Shown here: positions 3,256-39,241 of the stretch, piece by piece
How the letters are laid out: every line of letters begins with the position of its first letter
Numbering within the stretch: position 1 is the first letter of the stretch
NCBI RefSeq assembly: GCF_048403405.1
Contig: NZ_CP183129.1
Reading direction: 5' to 3' (one strand)
Length of the DNA stretch: 64,000 nucleotides
Origin: Escherichia coli
GTDB lineage: Bacteria > Pseudomonadota > Gammaproteobacteria > Enterobacterales > Enterobacteriaceae
Notes under the pieces: generated by a model
Told to the model about the DNA's origin: nothing
Database searches by the model: none
The model's input: only the letters and a program-made list of their open reading frames with translations
Program-made: the position numbers and the translations under genes

Positions 3256-4617
3256 ATGAAACTAAAGACCACATTGTTCGGCAATGTATATCAGTTTAAG
3301 GATGTAAAAGAGGTGCTGGCTAAAGCCAACGAACTGCGTTCGGGGGATGTGCTGGCGGGCGTTGCAGCGGCAAGCTCACAAGAGCGCGTGGCGGCAAAGC
3401 AGGTGTTGTCGGAAATGACCGTAGCGGACATCCGCAATAATCCGGTGATTGCCTATGAAGATGACTGCGTGACGCGGCTGATTCAGGACGACGTTAACGA
3501 AACGGCCTACAACCAGATTAAAAACTGGAGCATCAGCGAACTGCGTGAGTATGTCCTGAGCGATGAAACCAGCGTGGACGACATTGCCTTTACCCGCAAA
3601 GGGCTGACCTCGGAAGTGGTTGCGGCGGTAGCGAAGATTTGCTCCAACGCGGACCTGATCTACGGCGCGAAGAAAATGCCGGTAATCAAAAAGGCCAATA
3701 CCACCATCGGTATTCCGGGCACCTTCAGCGCCCGTTTGCAGCCAAATGACACCCGTGACGACGTGCAAAGTATCGCTGCGCAAATCTACGAAGGGCTTTC
3801 CTTCGGGGTGGGCGATGCGGTGATCGGCGTCAACCCGGTGACGGACGACGTGGAAAACTTAAGCCGCGTGCTGGACACCATCTACGGCGTGATCGACAAA
3901 TTCAACATTCCGACCCAGGGCTGCGTGCTGGCGCACGTCACCACCCAGATTGAAGCGATCCGTCGTGGCGCACCGGGCGGGCTGATTTTCCAGAGTATCT
4001 GCGGCAGCGAAAAAGGGCTGAAAGAGTTTGGCGTGGAGCTGGCGATGCTCGATGAAGCACGCGCAGTGGGCGCGGAGTTCAACCGTATCGCCGGGGAAAA
4101 CTGCCTCTACTTCGAAACCGGACAAGGTTCGGCGCTGTCCGCTGGCGCTAACTTCGGCGCTGACCAGGTGACGATGGAAGCGCGTAACTATGGGCTGGCG
4201 CGTCATTACGATCCGTTTATCGTCAACACCGTGGTCGGTTTTATTGGGCCGGAGTATCTCTACAACGACCGCCAGATTATCCGCGCGGGCTTAGAAGATC
4301 ACTTTATGGGCAAGCTGAGCGGCATCTCTATGGGCTGTGACTGCTGCTACACCAACCACGCTGACGCTGACCAGAACCTCAACGAAAACCTGATGATCCT
4401 GCTCGCCACCGCAGGCTGTAACTACATCATGGGGATGCCGCTGGGTGATGACATCATGCTCAACTACCAGACTACGGCCTTCCACGACACCGCCACTGTG
4501 CGTCAGTTACTCAACCTGCGCCCGTCACCGGAGTTTGAACGCTGGCTGGAAAGCATGGGCATTATGGCAAACGGTCGCCTGACCAAACGGGCGGGCGATC
4601 CGTCACTGTTCTTCTGA
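3256..4617 (+). CDS. eutB: EutB, ethanolamine ammonia-lyase large subunit
   Basis: 453-aa ORF starting 11 bp after the eutA stop. Confidence 0.92.
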   Translation: MKLKTTLFGNVYQFKDVKEVLAKANELRSGDVLAGVAAASSQERVAAKQVLSEMTVADIRNNPVIAYEDDCVTRLIQDDVNETAYNQIKNWSISELREYVLSDETSVDDIAFTRKGLTSEVVAAVAKICSNADLIYGAKKMPVIKKANTTIGIPGTFSARLQPNDTRDDVQSIAAQIYEGLSFGVGDAVIGVNPVTDDVENLSRVLDTIYGVIDKFNIPTQGCVLAHVTTQIEAIRRGAPGGLIFQSICGSEKGLKEFGVELAMLDEARAVGAEFNRIAGENCLYFETGQGSALSAGANFGADQVTMEARNYGLARHYDPFIVNTVVGFIGPEYLYNDRQIIRAGLEDHFMGKLSGISMGCDCCYTNHADADQNLNENLMILLATAGCNYIMGMPLGDDIMLNYQTTAFHDTATVRQLLNLRPSPEFERWLESMGIMANGRLTKRAGDPSLFF

Positions 4618-6200: not shown

Positions 6201-6707
6201 TTGCCGATGATCAATGCACTGGGATTGCTGGAAGTGGACGGCATGGTCGCCGCGCTAGATGCTGCGGATGCCATGCTCAAAGCAGCTAACGTTCGTCTGC
6301 TCAGTCACGAAGTGCTTGACCCTGGTCGCCTAACGCTGGTGGTGGAAGGCGATCTGGCGGCGTGTCGTGCGGCGCTGGACGCAGGTTGTGCTGCCGCGAT
6401 GCGTACCGGGCGTGTCATCAGCCGCAAGGAGATCGGTCGGCCAGACGATGACACCCAGTGGCTGGTTACTGGCTTTAACCGCCAGCCTAAGCAACCCGTA
6501 AAGGAACCCGACGCGCCAGTTATCGTCGCGGAATCTGCTGACGAGTTGTTGGCGCTGTTAACATCAGTACGTCAGGGAATGACGGCAGGAGAAGTGGCTG
6601 CCCACTTTGGCTGGCCGCTGGAAAAAGCCAGAAATGCGCTCGAACAGCTCTTTTCTGCCGGGACGTTACGTAAACGCAGTAGTCGTTATCGTCTCAAGCC
6701 CCATTAA
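6201..6707 (+). CDS. eutK: EutK, microcompartment shell protein with C-terminal extension
   Basis: 168-aa ORF, N-terminal BMC-like sequence MINALGLLEVDGMVAALDAADAMLKAANV. Confidence 0.88.
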   Translation: MPMINALGLLEVDGMVAALDAADAMLKAANVRLLSHEVLDPGRLTLVVEGDLAACRAALDAGCAAAMRTGRVISRKEIGRPDDDTQWLVTGFNRQPKQPVKEPDAPVIVAESADELLALLTSVRQGMTAGEVAAHFGWPLEKARNALEQLFSAGTLRKRSSRYRLKPH

Positions 6708-32637: not shown

Positions 32638-33564
32638 ATGAATTATTCTTTAAAACAATTAAAGGTTTTCGTCACAGTAGCGCAGGAGAAAAGTTTTAGT
32701 CGTGCAGGAGAGCGTATCGGCCTGAGCCAGTCGGCAGTGAGTCACAGTGTGAAGGAGCTGGAATATCATACTGGTGTTCGCCTGCTGGACAGAACCACGC
32801 GTGAAGTGGTGCTTACAGATGCAGGGCAGCAGTTGGCTTTGCGTCTTGAGCGACTGCTGGATGAACTGAACAGCACGTTGCGCGATACCGGGCGTATGGG
32901 GCAACAACTGAGCGGAAAAGTTCGGGTCGCTGCCAGCCAGACCATTTCCGCGCATCTTATTCCGCAATGCATTGCTGAAAGCCATCGCCGCTATCCAGAT
33001 ATTCAGTTTGTCCTGCACGATCGTCCGCAGCAGTGGGTGATGGAAAGTATTCGTCAGGGAGATGTCGACTTTGGCATCGTCATCGATCCAGGCCCAGTGG
33101 GCGATCTGCAATGTGAAGCGATTCTTTCCGAGCCTTTCTTTCTGCTTTGCCATCGCGATAGCGCTTTGGCCGTGGAAGATTATGTACCCTGGCAGGCATT
33201 ACAGGGAGCGAAATTGGTGTTGCAGGATTACGCGTCAGGCAGCCGACCGCTGATTGACGCAGCGCTGGCGCGCAATGGTATTCAGGCGAATATTGTGCAG
33301 GAGATTGGACATCCGGCGACGCTGTTCCCGATGGTAGCCGCAGGCATCGGCATTAGTATTCTTCCCGCACTGGCGCTGCCGTTACCTGAAGGTAGCCCGC
33401 TGGTGGTAAAGCGCATTACGCCGGTGGTGGAACGCCAGTTGATGCTGGTGCGCAGGAAGAACCGTTCACTTTCCACCGCCGCACAAGCGTTATGGGACGT
33501 GGTACGAGGCCAGGGCCGTGCGCTAATGGCTGGGCGGGAAGGGGAGCCGCTGTATCAGATATAG
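32638..33564 (+). CDS. yfeR: YfeR, LysR-family regulator
   Basis: 308-aa ORF with N-terminal LysR HTH. Confidence 0.88.
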
Positions 33565-33896
33565 ATATCGATCTGAGTCGTTTTTTCAACAGGATTTGGA
33601 AGGGATGCATTCAAAGACAAACGCTGCTCTTTCTCCTGCGCCTTTTCTGCCTGCTGTCTTTGCAACTGCGCCAGTTGTGTTTCCAGTAGGGTGATTTGCT
33701 GCTGAATCAATTCGGCCTGTTTTTGCTTGTCTTCAGCACTGCCGCTAGTGTCTGCAATCTCTTTAATTTGTTGAGTGAGTTTGATGATTTGCTGACTTAT
33801 CCGCGCAATTTGTGAAGCAACATCGCTACCTTCTGATGCCCTGTTACTACTCTGTGTTTGTATGGAAGGAATTGAAGTTGGAGAGATAGTGGCCAT
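33555..33896 (-). CDS. Hypothetical Gln-rich coiled-coil protein (FlxA-like), 113 aa
   Basis: ORF with heptad-like LQxQ repeats in the position where K-12 carries yfeN-xapABR; assignment by resemblance only. Confidence 0.4.
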
Positions 33897-33982
33897 TGTT
33901 CAGTCCTCGTCACTGTACGAGGTAATATCGGCAGAAGAACAAGGAACTTGAGAAGAAAAATCAATCTTACAAACCGCATATA

Positions 33983-34009
33983 GCAAAAAAGCGCCTTTAG
34001 GGCGCTTTT
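33983..34009. terminator. Bidirectional hairpin terminator after the tRNA cluster
   Basis: aaaaaagcgcc ttta gggcgctttttt. Confidence 0.65.
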
Positions 34010-34013
34010 TTAC

Positions 34014-34089
34014 ATTGGTGGGTCGTGCAGGATTCGAACCTGCGACCAATTGATTAAAAGTCAACTGCTCTACCAACTGAGCTAACGAC
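34014..34089 (-). tRNA. lysV: tRNA-Lys (UUU)
   Basis: 76 nt, reverse complement GGGTCGTTAGCTCAG...ACTTTTAATCA...CCACCA. Confidence 0.95.
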
Positions 34090-34093
34090 CCGA

Positions 34094-34169
34094 AGTGGTG
34101 GGTGATGACGGGATCGAACCGCCGACCCCCTCCTTGTAAGGGAGGTGCTCTCCCAGCTGAGCTAATCAC
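34094..34169 (-). tRNA. valY: tRNA-Val (UAC)
   Basis: 76 nt, anticodon loop CCTTACAAGG, 3' CCA. Confidence 0.95.
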
Positions 34170-34215
34170 CCACTTCGGTACTTCACATTTTTACAAGAAA
34201 TTTAGCTGGCGAGAA

Positions 34216-34291
34216 AGTGGTGGGTGATGACGGGATCGAACCGCCGACCCCCTCCTTGTAAGGGAGGTGCTCTCCCAGCTGAGCTAATCAC
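34216..34291 (-). tRNA. valX: tRNA-Val (UAC)
   Basis: Identical 76-nt copy. Confidence 0.95.
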
Positions 34292-34335
34292 CCACTTCTC
34301 AATTTCTTGCTACACGGCGGAGACTACATAAAGTA

Positions 34336-34411
34336 GTTGGTGGGTGATGACGGGATCGAACCGCCGACCCCCTCCTTGTAAGGGAGGTGCTCTCCCAGCT
34401 GAGCTAATCAC
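34336..34411 (-). tRNA. valU: tRNA-Val (UAC)
   Basis: Identical 76-nt copy. Confidence 0.95.
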
Positions 34412-34671
34412 CCCCGCTGTGTGGAGTCGCATTATAGGGAGAGTTCAAAATGAGTCAACGCATTTTCTAAAGAAATTGTTCGTTCGTCGTAAATTTAAGC
34501 AAGATGATCGCAAAACAGACCGTGTTGCGCAATTTGTCAACGAAAACAATAATGCGTAAGGTTGCAACCCGAACTACATTGAGGAATCAGGCGGGAGTGA
34601 TAGAATATCGCCCACTCAATTTTTCCAGGATTTGCCGGTTGTCGGCATCTTTCTAAACGTAAGGCCATTTC

Positions 34672-36087
34672 ATGAAAATCAAAACTCGCTTCGCGCCAAG
34701 CCCAACAGGCTATCTGCACGTTGGCGGCGCGCGTACTGCTCTTTACTCCTGGCTTTTTGCACGTAACCACGGCGGTGAGTTCGTGCTGCGTATTGAAGAC
34801 ACCGATCTTGAGCGTTCCACGCCGGAAGCTATCGAAGCCATTATGGATGGCATGAACTGGCTGAGCCTGGAGTGGGATGAAGGTCCGTACTTCCAGACCA
34901 AACGTTTTGATCGCTACAACGCGGTGATCGATCAGATGCTGGAAGAGGGCACAGCTTATAAATGCTATTGCTCTAAAGAGCGCCTGGAAGCGCTGCGCGA
35001 AGAGCAAATGGCGAAAGGTGAGAAGCCGCGTTATGACGGTCGCTGCCGCCACAGCCATGAGCATCATGCTGATGATGAACCGTGTGTTGTACGTTTTGCT
35101 AACCCGCAGGAAGGTTCTGTTGTTTTTGACGATCAGATCCGTGGTCCGATCGAATTCAGCAACCAGGAGCTGGATGATCTGATTATCCGTCGTACCGATG
35201 GTTCTCCAACCTATAACTTCTGTGTGGTGGTTGACGACTGGGATATGGAAATCACCCACGTTATCCGTGGCGAAGACCATATCAACAACACGCCACGCCA
35301 GATCAACATTCTTAAAGCACTGAAAGCGCCGGTACCGGTTTACGCGCACGTTTCTATGATCAACGGCGATGACGGCAAAAAACTGTCCAAACGTCACGGG
35401 GCGGTCAGCGTAATGCAGTATCGTGATGACGGTTATTTGCCAGAAGCACTGCTGAACTATCTGGTGCGTCTGGGCTGGTCCCACGGCGATCAGGAAATCT
35501 TCACTCGTGAAGAGATGATCAAATACTTCACCCTGAATGCCGTCAGCAAATCTGCCAGTGCGTTCAACACCGACAAGCTGCTGTGGCTGAACCATCACTA
35601 CATTAACGCGCTGCCGCCGGAGTATGTTGCTACTCAATTACAGTGGCACATTGAGCAGGAAAATATCGATACCCGTAACGGCCCGCAGCTGGCTGATCTG
35701 GTGAAACTACTGGGTGAACGCTGCAAGACGCTGAAAGAGATGGCACAGAGCTGCCGCTATTTCTACGAAGATTTTGCTGAGTTCGATGCCGACGCCGCGA
35801 AAAAACATCTGCGTCCGGTAGCGCGTCAGCCGCTGGAAGTGGTTCGTGACAAACTGGCCGCGATTACTGACTGGACCGCTGAAAACGTTCATCACGCTAT
35901 TCAGGCGACGGCGGATGAGCTGGAAGTGGGGATGGGTAAAGTTGGTATGCCGCTGCGTGTCGCCGTAACCGGTGCGGGGCAGTCTCCGGCGCTGGATGTT
36001 ACCGTTCACGCAATCGGTAAGACCCGCAGTATCGAGCGTATCAACAAAGCGCTGGCTTTTATTGCTGAACGCGAAAATCAGCAGTAA
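34672..36087 (+). CDS. gltX: GltX, glutamyl-tRNA synthetase
   Basis: 471-aa ORF with HIGH-type motif (PTGYLHVGG) and KMSK-type motif (KLSKR). Confidence 0.95.
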
Positions 36088-36103
36088 TTAGCGCATAAAA
36101 GAT

Positions 36104-36136
36104 AAACGGCAGGAGAGATACCCCTGCCGTTTTTTA
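36104..36136 (+). terminator. Rho-independent terminator after gltX
   Basis: aacggcagg agagatac ccctgccgtt followed by tttttt. Confidence 0.7.
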
Positions 36137-36210
36137 TTTATCCGGTGCGCCGTAAAACCCCGTCCTTCAGGGCGGGGATATAAGGCGCGGTTTTCCACCT
36201 GACCAGGTGT

Positions 36211-36630
36211 TTGCTGTTGTTCAATGTATTGGCGGATGACGGATATTGGCGCACCTCCGCAGCTACTGGCAAAATAGCCAGGACTCCACAAAACGCCTTT
36301 GTAGTAATACCTGACGGCAATATCTGGTCGATCTCGTCGCAGTCACCTACCCGATACGCCTTTGAGGCTGTTTACCAGACTGGATATCGCCAGTTTGGGA
36401 GGATAGTTAATTAACAAATGGACGTGATCTGGTTCGCCATCCATTTCAACCAGTTCAGCTTCAAAATCAGCACATACCTTTGAAAAGTAAGTGCGTAGTT
36501 TTTCTGTCGCGTCATGGTCAAAAATCTGGCGTCGGTATCTGGTGACAAAGACCAGGTGAACATGCATCAGGAAAACACAATGCCTTCCACGCCGGATATC
36601 GGTTTCTTTTTTCACAGACCAAAGTATCAT
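36211..36630 (-). pseudogene. tnpA: tnpA (IS200/IS605 Y1 HuH transposase) interrupted by an in-frame TGA at 36343-36345
   Basis: N-terminal ORF 36343..36630 carries HuH (PDHVHLLI); the same frame continues after the stop through RLRRDRPDIAVRYYYKGVLWSPGYFASSCGGAPISVIRQYIEQQ (ORF 36088..36291). Confidence 0.7.
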
Positions 36631-36637
36631 TTGGCCT

Positions 36638-37846
36638 GTGAAACGACTACAGGCATTTAAATTCCAGTTAAGACCCGGTGGTCAACAGGAGCGTGAAATG
36701 AGGCGCTTCGCAGGCGCATGTCGTTTCGTTTTCAATCGTGCTCTGGCGCTTCAGAATGAGAATCATGAGGCCGGTAATAAATACATCCCTTACGGGAAAA
36801 TGGCTTCCTGGCTGGTTGAGTGGAAAAACGCCACTGAAACGCAATGGCTTAAAGATTCGCCCTCACAGCCATTGCAACAGTCACTGAAAGACCTTGAGCG
36901 GGCTTACAAAAACTTCTTCCGGAAGCGGGCTGCTTTTCCCCGATTCAAAAAGCGGGGACAGAATGATGCATTCCGCTACCCGCAGGGCGTTAAGCTCGAT
37001 CAGGAAAACAGCCGTATTTTTCTGCCGAAACTTGGCTGGATGCGCTACCGGAATAGCCGTCAGGTCACGGGTGTTGTGAAAAATGTCACTGTCTGCCAGT
37101 CCTGCGGTAAGTGGTACATCAGTATTCAGACAGAAAGTGAAGTATCAACTCCGGTTCACCCTTCAGCATCAATGGTCGGGCTGGATGCTGGCGTGGCTAA
37201 ACTCGCCACGCTGTCAGATGGCACAGTCTTTGAGCCTGTAAACAGTTTTCAGAAAAACCAGAAGAAGCTGGCGAGACTTCAGCGACAGTTAAGCCGCAAG
37301 GTCAAATTCAGCAACAACTGGCAGAAGCAGAAACGCAAAATACAGCGACTGCATTCCTGTATCGCAAATATCCGCAGGGACTACCTTCATAAAGTCACAA
37401 CGACCGTCAGCAAAAACCACGCAATGATAGTCATTGAGGATTTGAAGGTCAGTAACATGTCAAAGTCAGCAGCGGGTACGGTCAGCCAGCCGCGGCGCAA
37501 TGTCCGGGCAAAATCAGGTTTAAACCGTTCGATACTGGATCAGGGCAGGTATGAAATGCGCCGCCAGCTTGAGTACAAGCAGCTCTGGCGTGGCGGTCAG
37601 GTGCTTGCTGTTCCGCCAGCGTACACAAGCCAGCGTTGCGCGTGCTGTGGTCATACAGCGAAAGAAAATCGCCTGTCACAAAGTCAATTCAGATGCCAGG
37701 TATGTGGATATACAGCGAACGCCGATGTAAACGGCGCTCGTAACATTTTAGCGGCGGGGCACGCCGTTCTTGCCTGTGGAGAGATGGTGCAGTCAGGCCG
37801 CCCGTTGAAGCAGGAACCCACCGAAATGATTCAGGCGACAGCCTGA
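36638..37846 (+). CDS. tnpB: TnpB (IS605 OrfB-type RuvC-like nuclease), 402 aa, GTG start
   Basis: N-terminal KFQLRP...FNRAL; RuvC-I GLDAGV, RuvC-II VIEDLK, CxxC...CxxC zinc finger (CACCGH...CQVCGY), Ruv[13 protein letters not shown]. Confidence 0.85.
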
Positions 37847-37901
37847 ACGTAGCAGGGATCCTCGTCATTCAGGGCGTGGAGGATGTCAAGCTGATTCATC
37901 T
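37700..37901 (+). ncRNA. Predicted TnpB-associated right-end guide RNA (omega RNA) region; extent not determined
   Basis: Inferred from the known organisation of IS200/IS605 elements (RNA overlaps the tnpB 3' end and right end, guide read from flank); no sequence-level proof here. Confidence 0.3.
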
Positions 37902-38170
37902 ATGTCGAGACGAGCAAGGAAATTACGAATTCCTTCGCGTGACAAAAATTGCGCAACTTTTTCCTGCTCACTGTGAGTCATGTTGTCTATTGCGCTGATG
38001 ATTTGCCGATAAGCAGGAGTGCGAATCCCCGGTGCGTATTCGGCAAGGGGTTCTTCGGCTTCCAGAAGCATCGGCGTGTTATGGAAGGCTGGCGTGTTCT
38101 GAATAAACTCGCAAACTTGCGTATCGACCAGAATAAGTCTGGCACGACCGCCTTTCACGCCAGGAAATTT
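37886..38170 (-). pseudogene. yfeD: yfeD 3' segment (codons 37-130) of an HTH-type DNA-binding protein split by the IS110-family insertion
   Basis: ORF 37886..38158 plus in-frame upstream codons KFPG; paralogous to yfeC. Confidence 0.8.
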
Positions 38171-38236
38171 AATGAGATGGTCACTCCCTCCTTCCCGGTA
38201 CTATGCTGAGGACAGGCTTTCATTCGGAGAACTATC

Positions 38237-39241
38237 ATGGAAAACATTGCGCTCATTGGTATCGATCTGGGTAAAAACTCTTTCCATATTCATTGCCAGG
38301 ATCGTCGCGGGAAGGCTGTTTACCGTAAAAAATTTACCCGGCCAAAGTTGATCGAATTTTTGGCGACATGCCCCGCTACAACCATCGCAATGGAAGCCTG
38401 TGGCGGTTCTCACTTTATGGCACGCAAGTTGGAAGAGTTGGGGCATTCCCCAAAGCTGATATCACCACAATTTGTCCGCCCGTTCGTTAAAAGCAATAAA
38501 AACGACTTTGTCGACGCCGAAGCTATTTGTGAAGCTGCATCGCGTCCGTCTATGCGTTTTGTGCAGCCCAGAACGGAATCTCAGCAGGCAATGCGGGCTC
38601 TGCATCGTGTCCGTGAATCCCTGGTTCAGGATAAGGTAAAAACAACCAATCAAATGCATGCTTTTCTGCTGGAATTTGGCATTAGCGTTCCCCGAGGAGC
38701 TGCCGTTATTAGCCGACTGAGTACCATTCTTGAGGATAATAGTTTGCCTCTTTACCTCAGCCAGTTATTGCTGAAATTACAACAGCATTATCACTATCTT
38801 GTTGAGCAGATTAAAGATTTGGAATCCCAGTTGAAACGAAAGTTGGACGAAGATGAGGTTGGACAGCGCTTGCTGAGCATTCCCTGCGTCGGAACACTGA
38901 CAGCGAGTACTATTTCAACTGAGATTGGCGACGGGAAGCAGTACGCCAGCAGCCGTGACTTTGCGGCGGCAACAGGGCTTGTACCTCGGCAGTACAGCAC
39001 GGGAGGTAGGACGACATTGCTGGGAATTAGTAAGCGAGGTAATAAAAAGATCCGAACTTTGTTGGTTCAATGTGCCAGGGTATTCATACAAAAACTGGAA
39101 CACCAGTCTGGCAAATTGGCCGATTGGGTCAGGGATTTACTGTGCCGGAAAAGCAACTTTGTCGTCACTTGTGCTCTGGCAAACAAGCTGGCCAGAATAG
39201 CCTGGGCCCTAACGGCACGACAGCAAACTTATGTAGCATAA
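38237..39241 (+). CDS. IS110-family DEDD transposase/recombinase, 334 aa
   Basis: N-terminal RuvC-like motifs (IGIDLGK, MEACG, DFVDAEA) and C-terminal domain with conserved Ser (VPRQYSTGG). Confidence 0.85.
   Translation: MENIALIGIDLGKNSFHIHCQDRRGKAVYRKKFTRPKLIEFLATCPATTIAMEACGGSHFMARKLEELGHSPKLISPQFVRPFVKSNKNDFVDAEAICEAASRPSMRFVQPRTESQQAMRALHRVRESLVQDKVKTTNQMHAFLLEFGISVPRGAAVISRLSTILEDNSLPLYLSQLLLKLQQHYHYLVEQIKDLESQLKRKLDEDEVGQRLLSIPCVGTLTASTISTEIGDGKQYASSRDFAAATGLVPRQYSTGGRTTLLGISKRGNKKIRTLLVQCARVFIQKLEHQSGKLADWVRDLLCRKSNFVVTCALANKLARIAWALTARQQTYVA

Follow-up and report, generated by a model that had tools for sequence, protein, structure and literature searches.

A non-autonomous IS609 copy with an interrupted tnpA and a TnpB–ωRNA module that may still work, between gltX and yfeD of Escherichia coli

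Introduction

Insertion sequences (IS) IS605 and IS608 of Helicobacter pylori are the paradigm of single-strand transposition by a Y1 transposase, TnpA, with TTAC as the target of IS608. TnpA is an HUH enzyme that excises and inserts the top strand of its element as single-stranded DNA ('peel and paste'); it recognises subterminal hairpins and cleaves on the 3' side of TTAT (left end) and of TCAA (right end) without generating a duplication. TnpB, the product of the companion gene, binds an RNA derived from the 3' end of tnpB and the right end of the element (ωRNA), whose guide portion reads on into the flanking DNA. Together, TnpB and its ωRNA cut DNA in which a transposon-associated motif (TAM; TTAT) precedes the guide sequence, a combination found at the empty or excised site, and the element returns when the break is repaired by homologous recombination with a sister copy. 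Here we describe a copy of IS609, a member of the IS200/IS605 family, that lies between gltX and yfeD in a 64,000-nucleotide stretch of E. coli DNA (contig NZ_CP183129.1; hereafter the window, to which all positions refer). We conclude that it is a non-autonomous IS609 copy in which tnpA is a pseudogene, and that its TnpB–ωRNA module may still work.

Like IS605 and IS608, the element has subterminal imperfect hairpins, no inverted repeats and no target duplication. Its right end finishes in TCAA 10 nt past the foot of the hairpin, which is the geometry of IS608, and its tnpA and tnpB diverge like those of IS605; its target is TTAT, whereas that of IS608 is TTAC. In ISDra2 of Deinococcus radiodurans tnpA and tnpB are co-oriented rather than divergent, and the ISDra2 TAM is TTGAT as compared with the TTAT or TTTAT predicted for IS609. 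The aligned TnpB sequences of ISDra2 and the window copy are clearly divergent, but the RuvC residues Asp, Glu and Asp and the zinc-finger cysteines align, and the guide RNA scaffold lies in the 3' end of tnpB and the right end in ISDra2 and, by prediction, here. Closer still are other IS609 copies, including those of K-12 (ydcL–insQ–ydcO) and EDL933 (with WP_000604943.1), which have the same 1748 bp, ends, TTAT target and TCAA terminus, and the same divergent gene pair with 7 bp between the annotated starts. The window copy differs from these in having its own site and six substitutions that the eight other E. coli copies compared lack; two lesions in its tnpA are shared with the K-12 copy, whereas tnpA is intact in EDL933.

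Results

Identity, exact ends and insertion site

We searched the region 35900-38200 by megablast against 5426 complete E. coli genomes. The arrangement of gltX end, element and yfeD end is present in 501 of these, five of them being 100% identical. Two strains with a fully identical locus are TUM14771 and MS 69-1. RefSeq annotation of the matching loci gives 'IS200/IS605-like element IS609 family transposase' and 'RNA-guided endonuclease InsQ/TnpB family protein', and at the identical locus in strain TUM14771 the RefSeq/PGAP name is IS609 family transposase, with tnpA flagged as a pseudogene ('internal stop'). The EDL933 copy, the intact tnpA of which is named IS609 by RefSeq, is 98.2% identical to the window element over all 1748 bp, and this full-length identity excludes a chance resemblance. 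The preliminary description of this DNA, which recognised an IS200/IS605-family element between gltX and yfeD, is thus confirmed, with the RefSeq-annotated identical locus supplying the name IS609. From the sequence, we regard it as virtually certain that 36142..37889 is a copy of this element, whose tnpA and tnpB are arranged divergently, as those of IS605 are.

The exact ends follow from alignment with the gltX–yfeD spacer of K-12 MG1655, which lacks the element and reads ...ccgttttttatttat|gctgattcg..., or in a shorter reading ...ttttttatttat|gctgattc.... The complete element (+ strand, 1748 bp) is exactly 36142..37889, and comparison of the occupied window with the empty K-12 site reveals neither a target-site duplication nor terminal inverted repeats. 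These coordinates, which also agree with copies at other loci and with the RefSeq annotation, correct the limits proposed earlier (36141-37885), moving the left one by 1 bp and the right one by 4 bp. The empty K-12 site is TTTAT|GCTG, so that the comparison with a strain lacking the insertion, which had been suggested as a check, yields both the exact ends and the target motif: the element is inserted 3' of a TTTAT in the flanking DNA (36137..36141, + strand), which serves TnpA as insertion site and is predicted to serve TnpB as TAM, with a core TTAT at 36138-36141. At five other loci (ydcO, ytfB, yeaQ, yedK and tsx), copies with 98-99% identity align with the element from position 1 to position 1748 exactly, and at each of the six independent E. 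coli insertion sites the left end is directly preceded by TTAT (mostly TTTAT). All of the E. coli copies compared finish in ...GGAGGATGTCAA, a terminus that is kept in about 70 relatives in other Gamma- and Betaproteobacteria.

The left-end flanks of IS609 relatives in Betaproteobacteria and other Gammaproteobacteria are TTAT, TTAC or TTGAT, with the right terminus GGAGGATGTCAA retained. Judged from these flanks, the target, and with it the TAM, has shifted within one clade of IS609 relatives.

The right end was earlier thought to abut the yfeD stop codon. The element instead contains that codon: the TGA at 37886..37888 (- strand) is made of the last IS609 bases. The K-12 yfeD stop, TAA, sits inside the TTTAT target, and the gene ends GCA TAA in K-12 versus GCT TGA in the window. 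The insertion thus changes the last Ala codon from GCA to GCT and the stop from TAA to TGA, and leaves the YfeD protein sequence unaltered. IS609 also parts yfeD from a hairpin at 36104-36132, which is terminator-like on the yfeD (-) strand by a consensus scan and also lies 3' of the gltX stop codon.

Distribution of IS609 in E. coli

An element-only search found copies covering at least 80% of IS609 in 4858 of the 5426 complete genomes (~90%), at roughly 11,000 places in total and with a median of two per genome. The sites that recur are ydcL–ydcO (the K-12 insQ copy), between a TetR fragment and ytfB (O157), yeaR–yeaQ, yedK, tsx and gltX–yfeD. A search of the window found no further IS609 copies or fragments elsewhere in it. 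Among relatives that carry tnpA, most have it divergent and about 6-17 bp from the tnpB start, and the divergent layout is therefore typical of the clade; about a quarter of IS609 relatives consist of tnpB only, without tnpA.

tnpA is a pseudogene

The preliminary description reported a divergent Y1-transposase gene, and such a gene is indeed present, with its ATG (36630) 7 bp from the tnpB GTG (36638), but it is interrupted. Translation of the minus strand from 36630 encounters a single in-frame TGA (36343-36345, codon 96), after which the frame is open through the left end to 36088; the frame is continuous, which rules out a frameshift. The natural stop codon is also gone, with CAG in place of TAG at codon 144 (36199-36201). 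With the internal stop masked, the product matches the NCBIfam model for IS200/IS605 transposases (NF033573) at 6.6e-43 over profile positions 2-126 of 126. The intact reference is the 143-residue EDL933 TnpA (WP_000604943.1), with TTA at codon 96 and TAG at codon 144. We therefore assign 36199..36630 (- strand) as a tnpA pseudogene, on the basis of the translation, the EDL933 comparison, the NCBIfam match and the PGAP 'internal stop' flag. The truncated 95-residue product keeps the HUH motif (H69, H71) and loses the C-terminal helix with the presumed catalytic Y135 (...IRQYIEQQ). Because tnpA is a pseudogene truncated before Y135, the copy is, on this sequence evidence, non-autonomous and probably cannot move on its own.

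The same two changes, TGA at codon 96 and CAG at codon 144, are found at the same codons in the K-12-lineage copy that we sampled (strain J53). IS609 of K-12 has been reported as inactive or not transposing (PMC2891674, PMC5009759), and none of 758 IS insertions in mutation-accumulation lines was a new insertion of IS609 (PMC5009759). We took a census of these alleles with 33-mers, in which a central mismatch blocks any megablast seed, and counted places in the E. coli genomes. At codon 96, TGA occurs at 3369 places and TTA at 6336; at codon 144, CAG occurs at 6618 places and TAG at 1582. The TGA is thus present in ~35% of E. coli IS609 copies and the codon-144 stop is lost in ~80%, and from these counts a canonical tnpA can be present in at most about one-seventh of copies. 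tnpB is usually open even though a canonical tnpA is that infrequent. The TGA allele is found at no fewer than three insertion sites (yfeD, ydcO and yedK), and both TGA and TTA alleles occur at the yfeD site. This spread across sites suggests that copies have exchanged sequence by gene conversion or have been mobilised in trans.

In nine E. coli copies, a small sample whose members are not independent, the ratio of non-synonymous to synonymous polymorphism per site (pN/pS) is 1.23 for tnpA versus 0.32 for tnpB. By this measure tnpB is under purifying selection across the E. coli copies generally and tnpA is evolving neutrally. At gltX–yfeD itself, a sister copy that is 98.6% identical (NZ_CP148334.1, 1238..2446; strain Z1323HEC0423) has an internal stop in tnpB together with a frameshift in tnpA; in some lineages, then, both genes are already decaying at this locus.

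tnpB is open and keeps the motifs of an RNA-guided nuclease

The 402-codon open reading frame at 36638..37846 (+ strand, GTG start) was put forward as tnpB, and both Pfam and NCBIfam models bear this out. The Pfam matches are to HTH_OrfB_IS605 (PF12323; 3.9e-14, residues 1-48), OrfB_IS605 (PF01385; 1.3e-34, residues 162-277) and Cas12f1-like_TNB (PF07282; 1.1e-22, residues 305-370), which together give the architecture of TnpB, with an N-terminal HTH/WED-REC region, a split RuvC domain and a zinc-ribbon TNB domain. The NCBIfam guided_TnpB model (NF040570) matches at 8.7e-114, with 380.8 bits against a cutoff of 100. The best match in the Protein Data Bank is an AI-designed nuclease (9yyg, 2.1e-61), and the closest natural solved structure is that of ISDra2 TnpB (8H1J, 8BF8, 8EXA; 7.5e-53, residues 3-376).

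For conservation we used three sets: the nine E. coli copies, 72 relatives at 57-94% identity, and 130 diverse representatives. The RuvC motifs and zinc finger noted in the preliminary description are present as D183/E267/D363 and C334/C337/C353/C356; each of these positions is conserved in 122-129 of the 130 diverse representatives and aligns with the motifs of ISDra2 TnpB. Ten residues have been called functionally critical for TnpB (PMC12781874), and all ten are found here at an offset of +2 (N33, G181, D183, E267, L269, C334, C337, C353, C356 and D363). A screen of orthologues has included purification of the IS609 TnpB (PMC12781874). Of the six substitutions that the window copy has and the eight other E. 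coli copies compared lack, five lie in tnpB.

About 60 IS609-like relatives have a TATAAT box ~7 nt upstream of the tnpB ATG, a distance that suggests a leaderless tnpB mRNA in these relatives, transcribed from a promoter inside the 5' end of tnpA. The corresponding box in the window copy is TATCAT, and its C creates the annotated tnpA ATG (36630); the tnpA start of the relatives is probably the codon equivalent to V6 (36615), and the 7-bp spacing between starts may be specific to Escherichia. A promoter consensus scan of the element gave two promoter-like matches, with 1.6 expected. We also considered a terminator-like hairpin over the tnpB start (36634-36654) and dropped it, as it is unconserved in the relatives that were inspected.

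Left and right end hairpins

Near-identical motifs inside imperfect hairpins had been described at both ends. Both are present, on the + strand, and match known IS200/IS605 ends, with the qualification that the right end (RE) hairpin of this copy has two mismatches. The left end (LE; 36142..36200, + strand) begins with 16 nt followed by the imperfect subterminal hairpin CCCCGTCC-TTCA-GGGCGGGG at 36158-36177, and this is enclosed by an outer stem in which 36147-36151 pairs with 36184-36188. As DNA, the LE folds at -14.7 kcal/mol (z -2.4), and it is kept in relatives, with two-sided stem changes visible by eye in the listed sequences.

The RE (37859..37889, + strand) consists of a subterminal hairpin at 37859-37880 followed by AGGATGTCAA, the last four bases of which, TCAA (37886-37889), are the right cleavage site. 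The canonical RE hairpin is CCACGTCC-TTCA-GGGCGTGG, followed by 10 nt finishing in TCAA. In the window copy it is CCTCGTCA-TTCA-GGGCGTGG at 37860-37879, in which the changes 37862 A>T and 37867 C>A create the mismatches T37862·T37877 and A37867·G37872 and break two of the eight stem pairs. The resulting DNA fold is weak (-5.1 kcal/mol, z -0.24) and no better than that of shuffled sequence. Across 39 relatives, the RE hairpin has compensatory changes in seven of nine pairs. The same two-mismatch variant is present in one copy at the yeaQ site that has an intact tnpA, and we therefore reject the mismatches as proof of immobility.

A predicted ωRNA and its guide

For the right end we built an alignment of the final 200 nt of the element and of 38 related copies, of which one is another E. 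coli copy and 37 come from other bacteria. From this 39-sequence alignment and its covariation we predict an ωRNA scaffold at 37751..37889 (+ strand), overlapping the last ~96 nt of tnpB, its stop codon and the RE. RNAalifold gives 29 pairs, 15 of them with compensatory changes, and the predicted helices are 37751-56/37762-67, 37773-77/37810-14, 37826-36/37841-50 and 37859-67/37872-80. A 35-pair structure, formed by adding to the RNAalifold structure a hairpin that spans the tnpB stop codon, was used for testing; 94% of its cells are paired, versus 38-50% with slid partners, 18 pairs show double changes, and none of 500 shuffles reaches the observed values. These patterns are consistent with an ωRNA scaffold that terminates at the right-end boundary (37889) and is at least ~140 nt long. 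Its 5' boundary could extend to about 37733; RNAalifold also drew a long-range helix, 37733-36/37884-87, which we do not claim as the 5' boundary, double changes being present in none of its four pairs. An Rfam scan of 33500-41000 (E <= 1) returned no match to an ωRNA or IS605-orfB family, and no family reached its threshold. The only match in the region, to RAGATH-18 at 37773-37816 (+ strand) inside the scaffold, scored 25.4 bits against a gathering threshold of 44.9 (E 0.24) and was treated as probable chance.

By position, and by analogy with ISDra2 and IS608, the guide is predicted to be the 16 nt GCTGATTCATCTATGT at 37890..37905 (+ strand), in the flanking 3' end of yfeD. The empty-site 33-mer, in which the left flank is joined to the right flank (TTTAT|GCTGATTCATCTATGTC), occurs in 998 of the 5426 E. 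coli genomes; an empty allele that matches the guide perfectly thus co-circulates with the 501 occupied alleles. The TAM is predicted to be TTAT or TTTAT; TAM usage, guide length, transcription and processing of the ωRNA, and nuclease activity are all inferred.

Neighbouring genes and a second insertion sequence

gltX lies upstream (34672..36087, + strand) and is followed by the terminator hairpin. Downstream, the 3' part of yfeD is listed as an open reading frame at 37886..38158 (- strand), and the gene is split by a second insertion sequence of 1326 bp (38171..39496), 281 bp from the IS609 right end and with no target duplication. The second element carries a transposase gene (38237..39241, + strand) whose 334-residue product is identical to the 'IS110-like element IS4321 family transposase' WP_000427623.1. 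Its joined target, read on the sense strand of yfeD, is GGCTGGAAAACGGAA|AAATTTCC, resembling the GAAAACGGAAAA core of Tn21-family terminal repeats, the usual target of IS4321/IS5075. Strains that are 100% identical across IS609 lack the IS4321-family insertion.

Discussion

We interpret the locus as an IS609 copy that has lost its own means of transposition and in which the remaining tnpB and ωRNA module is still expressed and at least partly functional, a reading to which we give a probability of about 0.6. Such a copy would be mobile only if another IS609 copy supplied TnpA in trans, and even then the RE hairpin on which that TnpA would act carries two mismatches. The predicted target of TnpB would be the unoccupied gltX–yfeD allele, to which the guide GCTGATTCATCTATGT matches. 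The occupied locus should be spared from its own guide, since TCAA, not TTAT, precedes the guide-matching DNA; on the ISDra2/IS608 paradigm, self-cleavage is not expected.

Several observations weigh against a functional module, and they make the case for an inert relic, in which W304R, G286R, S153C and/or weak expression have abolished TnpB function and decaying DNA is inherited vertically at gltX–yfeD. The earlier description of an intact TnpB nuclease holds for the open reading frame and its motifs; the predicted nuclease activity is uncertain and TnpB may be impaired, because these three substitutions, absent from the eight other E. coli copies compared, hit conserved positions. Among the 72 relatives, position 153 is Ser in 68 (Cys in the window copy), position 286 is Gly in 71 (Arg here) and position 304 is Trp in all 72 (Arg here). 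Position 304 is Trp also in 101 of the 130 diverse representatives and in ISDra2 TnpB, and the R304 allele is confined to nine of the 5426 E. coli genomes. The tnpB changes that only this copy has in that comparison are three non-synonymous versus two synonymous, a ratio that fits relaxed selection. With a -10-like box of TATCAT (TATAAT in relatives) and a GTG start codon, expression of tnpB may be weak in this copy. The RE hairpin is degenerate, and its two mismatches also lie in the 3' stem of the ωRNA scaffold. That tnpB decay occurs at this site is evident from the Z1323HEC0423 sister copy. Countering this, the 402-codon frame is open with every one of the ten critical residues in place, purifying selection acts on tnpB in E. 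coli copies generally (pN/pS 0.32), and W304 is not universal, as 29 of the 130 representatives differ and three of these have Arg. We consider an inert relic a serious possibility, though one that falls short of being probable.

Two other explanations were considered. UGA followed by C, as at tnpA codon 96, is a leaky stop in E. coli; if it were read through at low frequency, enough full-length TnpA for rare transposition could be made and the copy would be an attenuated but autonomous and still mobile IS. The stop context (CGT-TGA-C) is compatible with this, and the presence of the TGA at three or more insertion sites, in some 3369 places as compared with 6336 for TTA, could mean that TGA-bearing copies have moved; however, gene conversion or mobilisation in trans accounts for the shared allele just as well, tnpA has a pN/pS of ~1.2, and the window copy also lacks the natural tnpA stop and has a mismatched RE hairpin. 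Given in addition the lack of new K-12 IS609 insertions in the mutation-accumulation lines (PMC5009759), we think read-through mobility very improbable. It is also conceivable that the host has co-opted the nuclease and ωRNA, for instance in RNA-guided regulation of yfeD/yfeC or in defence. In favour of this, tnpB persists under constraint as tnpA decays, 501 genomes have the site stably occupied and the guide is fixed on the 3' end of yfeD. Known exapted TnpB regulators (TldR) lose the RuvC triad; here the D-E-D triad is intact, and we reject a TldR-like, nuclease-dead exaptation. Domestication of any sort sits poorly with the occurrence of the same element at several unrelated loci with unrelated guides, with guide-matching DNA that lacks a TAM at the occupied locus, with the destruction of yfeD itself in the window by the second IS, and with tnpB pseudogenes in some copies at the same site, and we judge it the least credible of these explanations.

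Returning to a partly functional module, a further and more tentative step would be that IS609 copies with a dead tnpA have their TnpB–ωRNA kept by selection, as a site-specific homing or retention drive. The difference in pN/pS between tnpB (0.32) and tnpA (1.23) may be cited for selection on the module, and the empty TTTAT+GCTGATTCATCTATGTC allele would be cut when occupied and empty alleles meet, for instance after horizontal transfer. We regard this as rather unlikely. Were it true, copies could spread or persist without any transposase, and it would account for a tnpA nonsense allele that is shared by several loci and by roughly one-third of the E. coli copies.

IS609 itself is already known: it is catalogued, automatically annotated by RefSeq and a regular entry in surveys of E. 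coli genomes and mobilomes, with 49 papers that name it, and nothing at this locus is outside what is known for IS609 and the TnpB retention model. The value of the present analysis lies in its corrections, namely the exact ends, the yfeD stop codon donated by the IS, and the recognition of tnpA as a pseudogene. For anyone mining this locus for an editor nuclease, the W304 allele, which every one of the eight other E. coli copies compared carries, is safer to use. More broadly, the locus offers a modest illustration, at the population level, of the known tendency of TnpB to outlast TnpA, with an empty allele that matches the predicted guide co-circulating in the same species.

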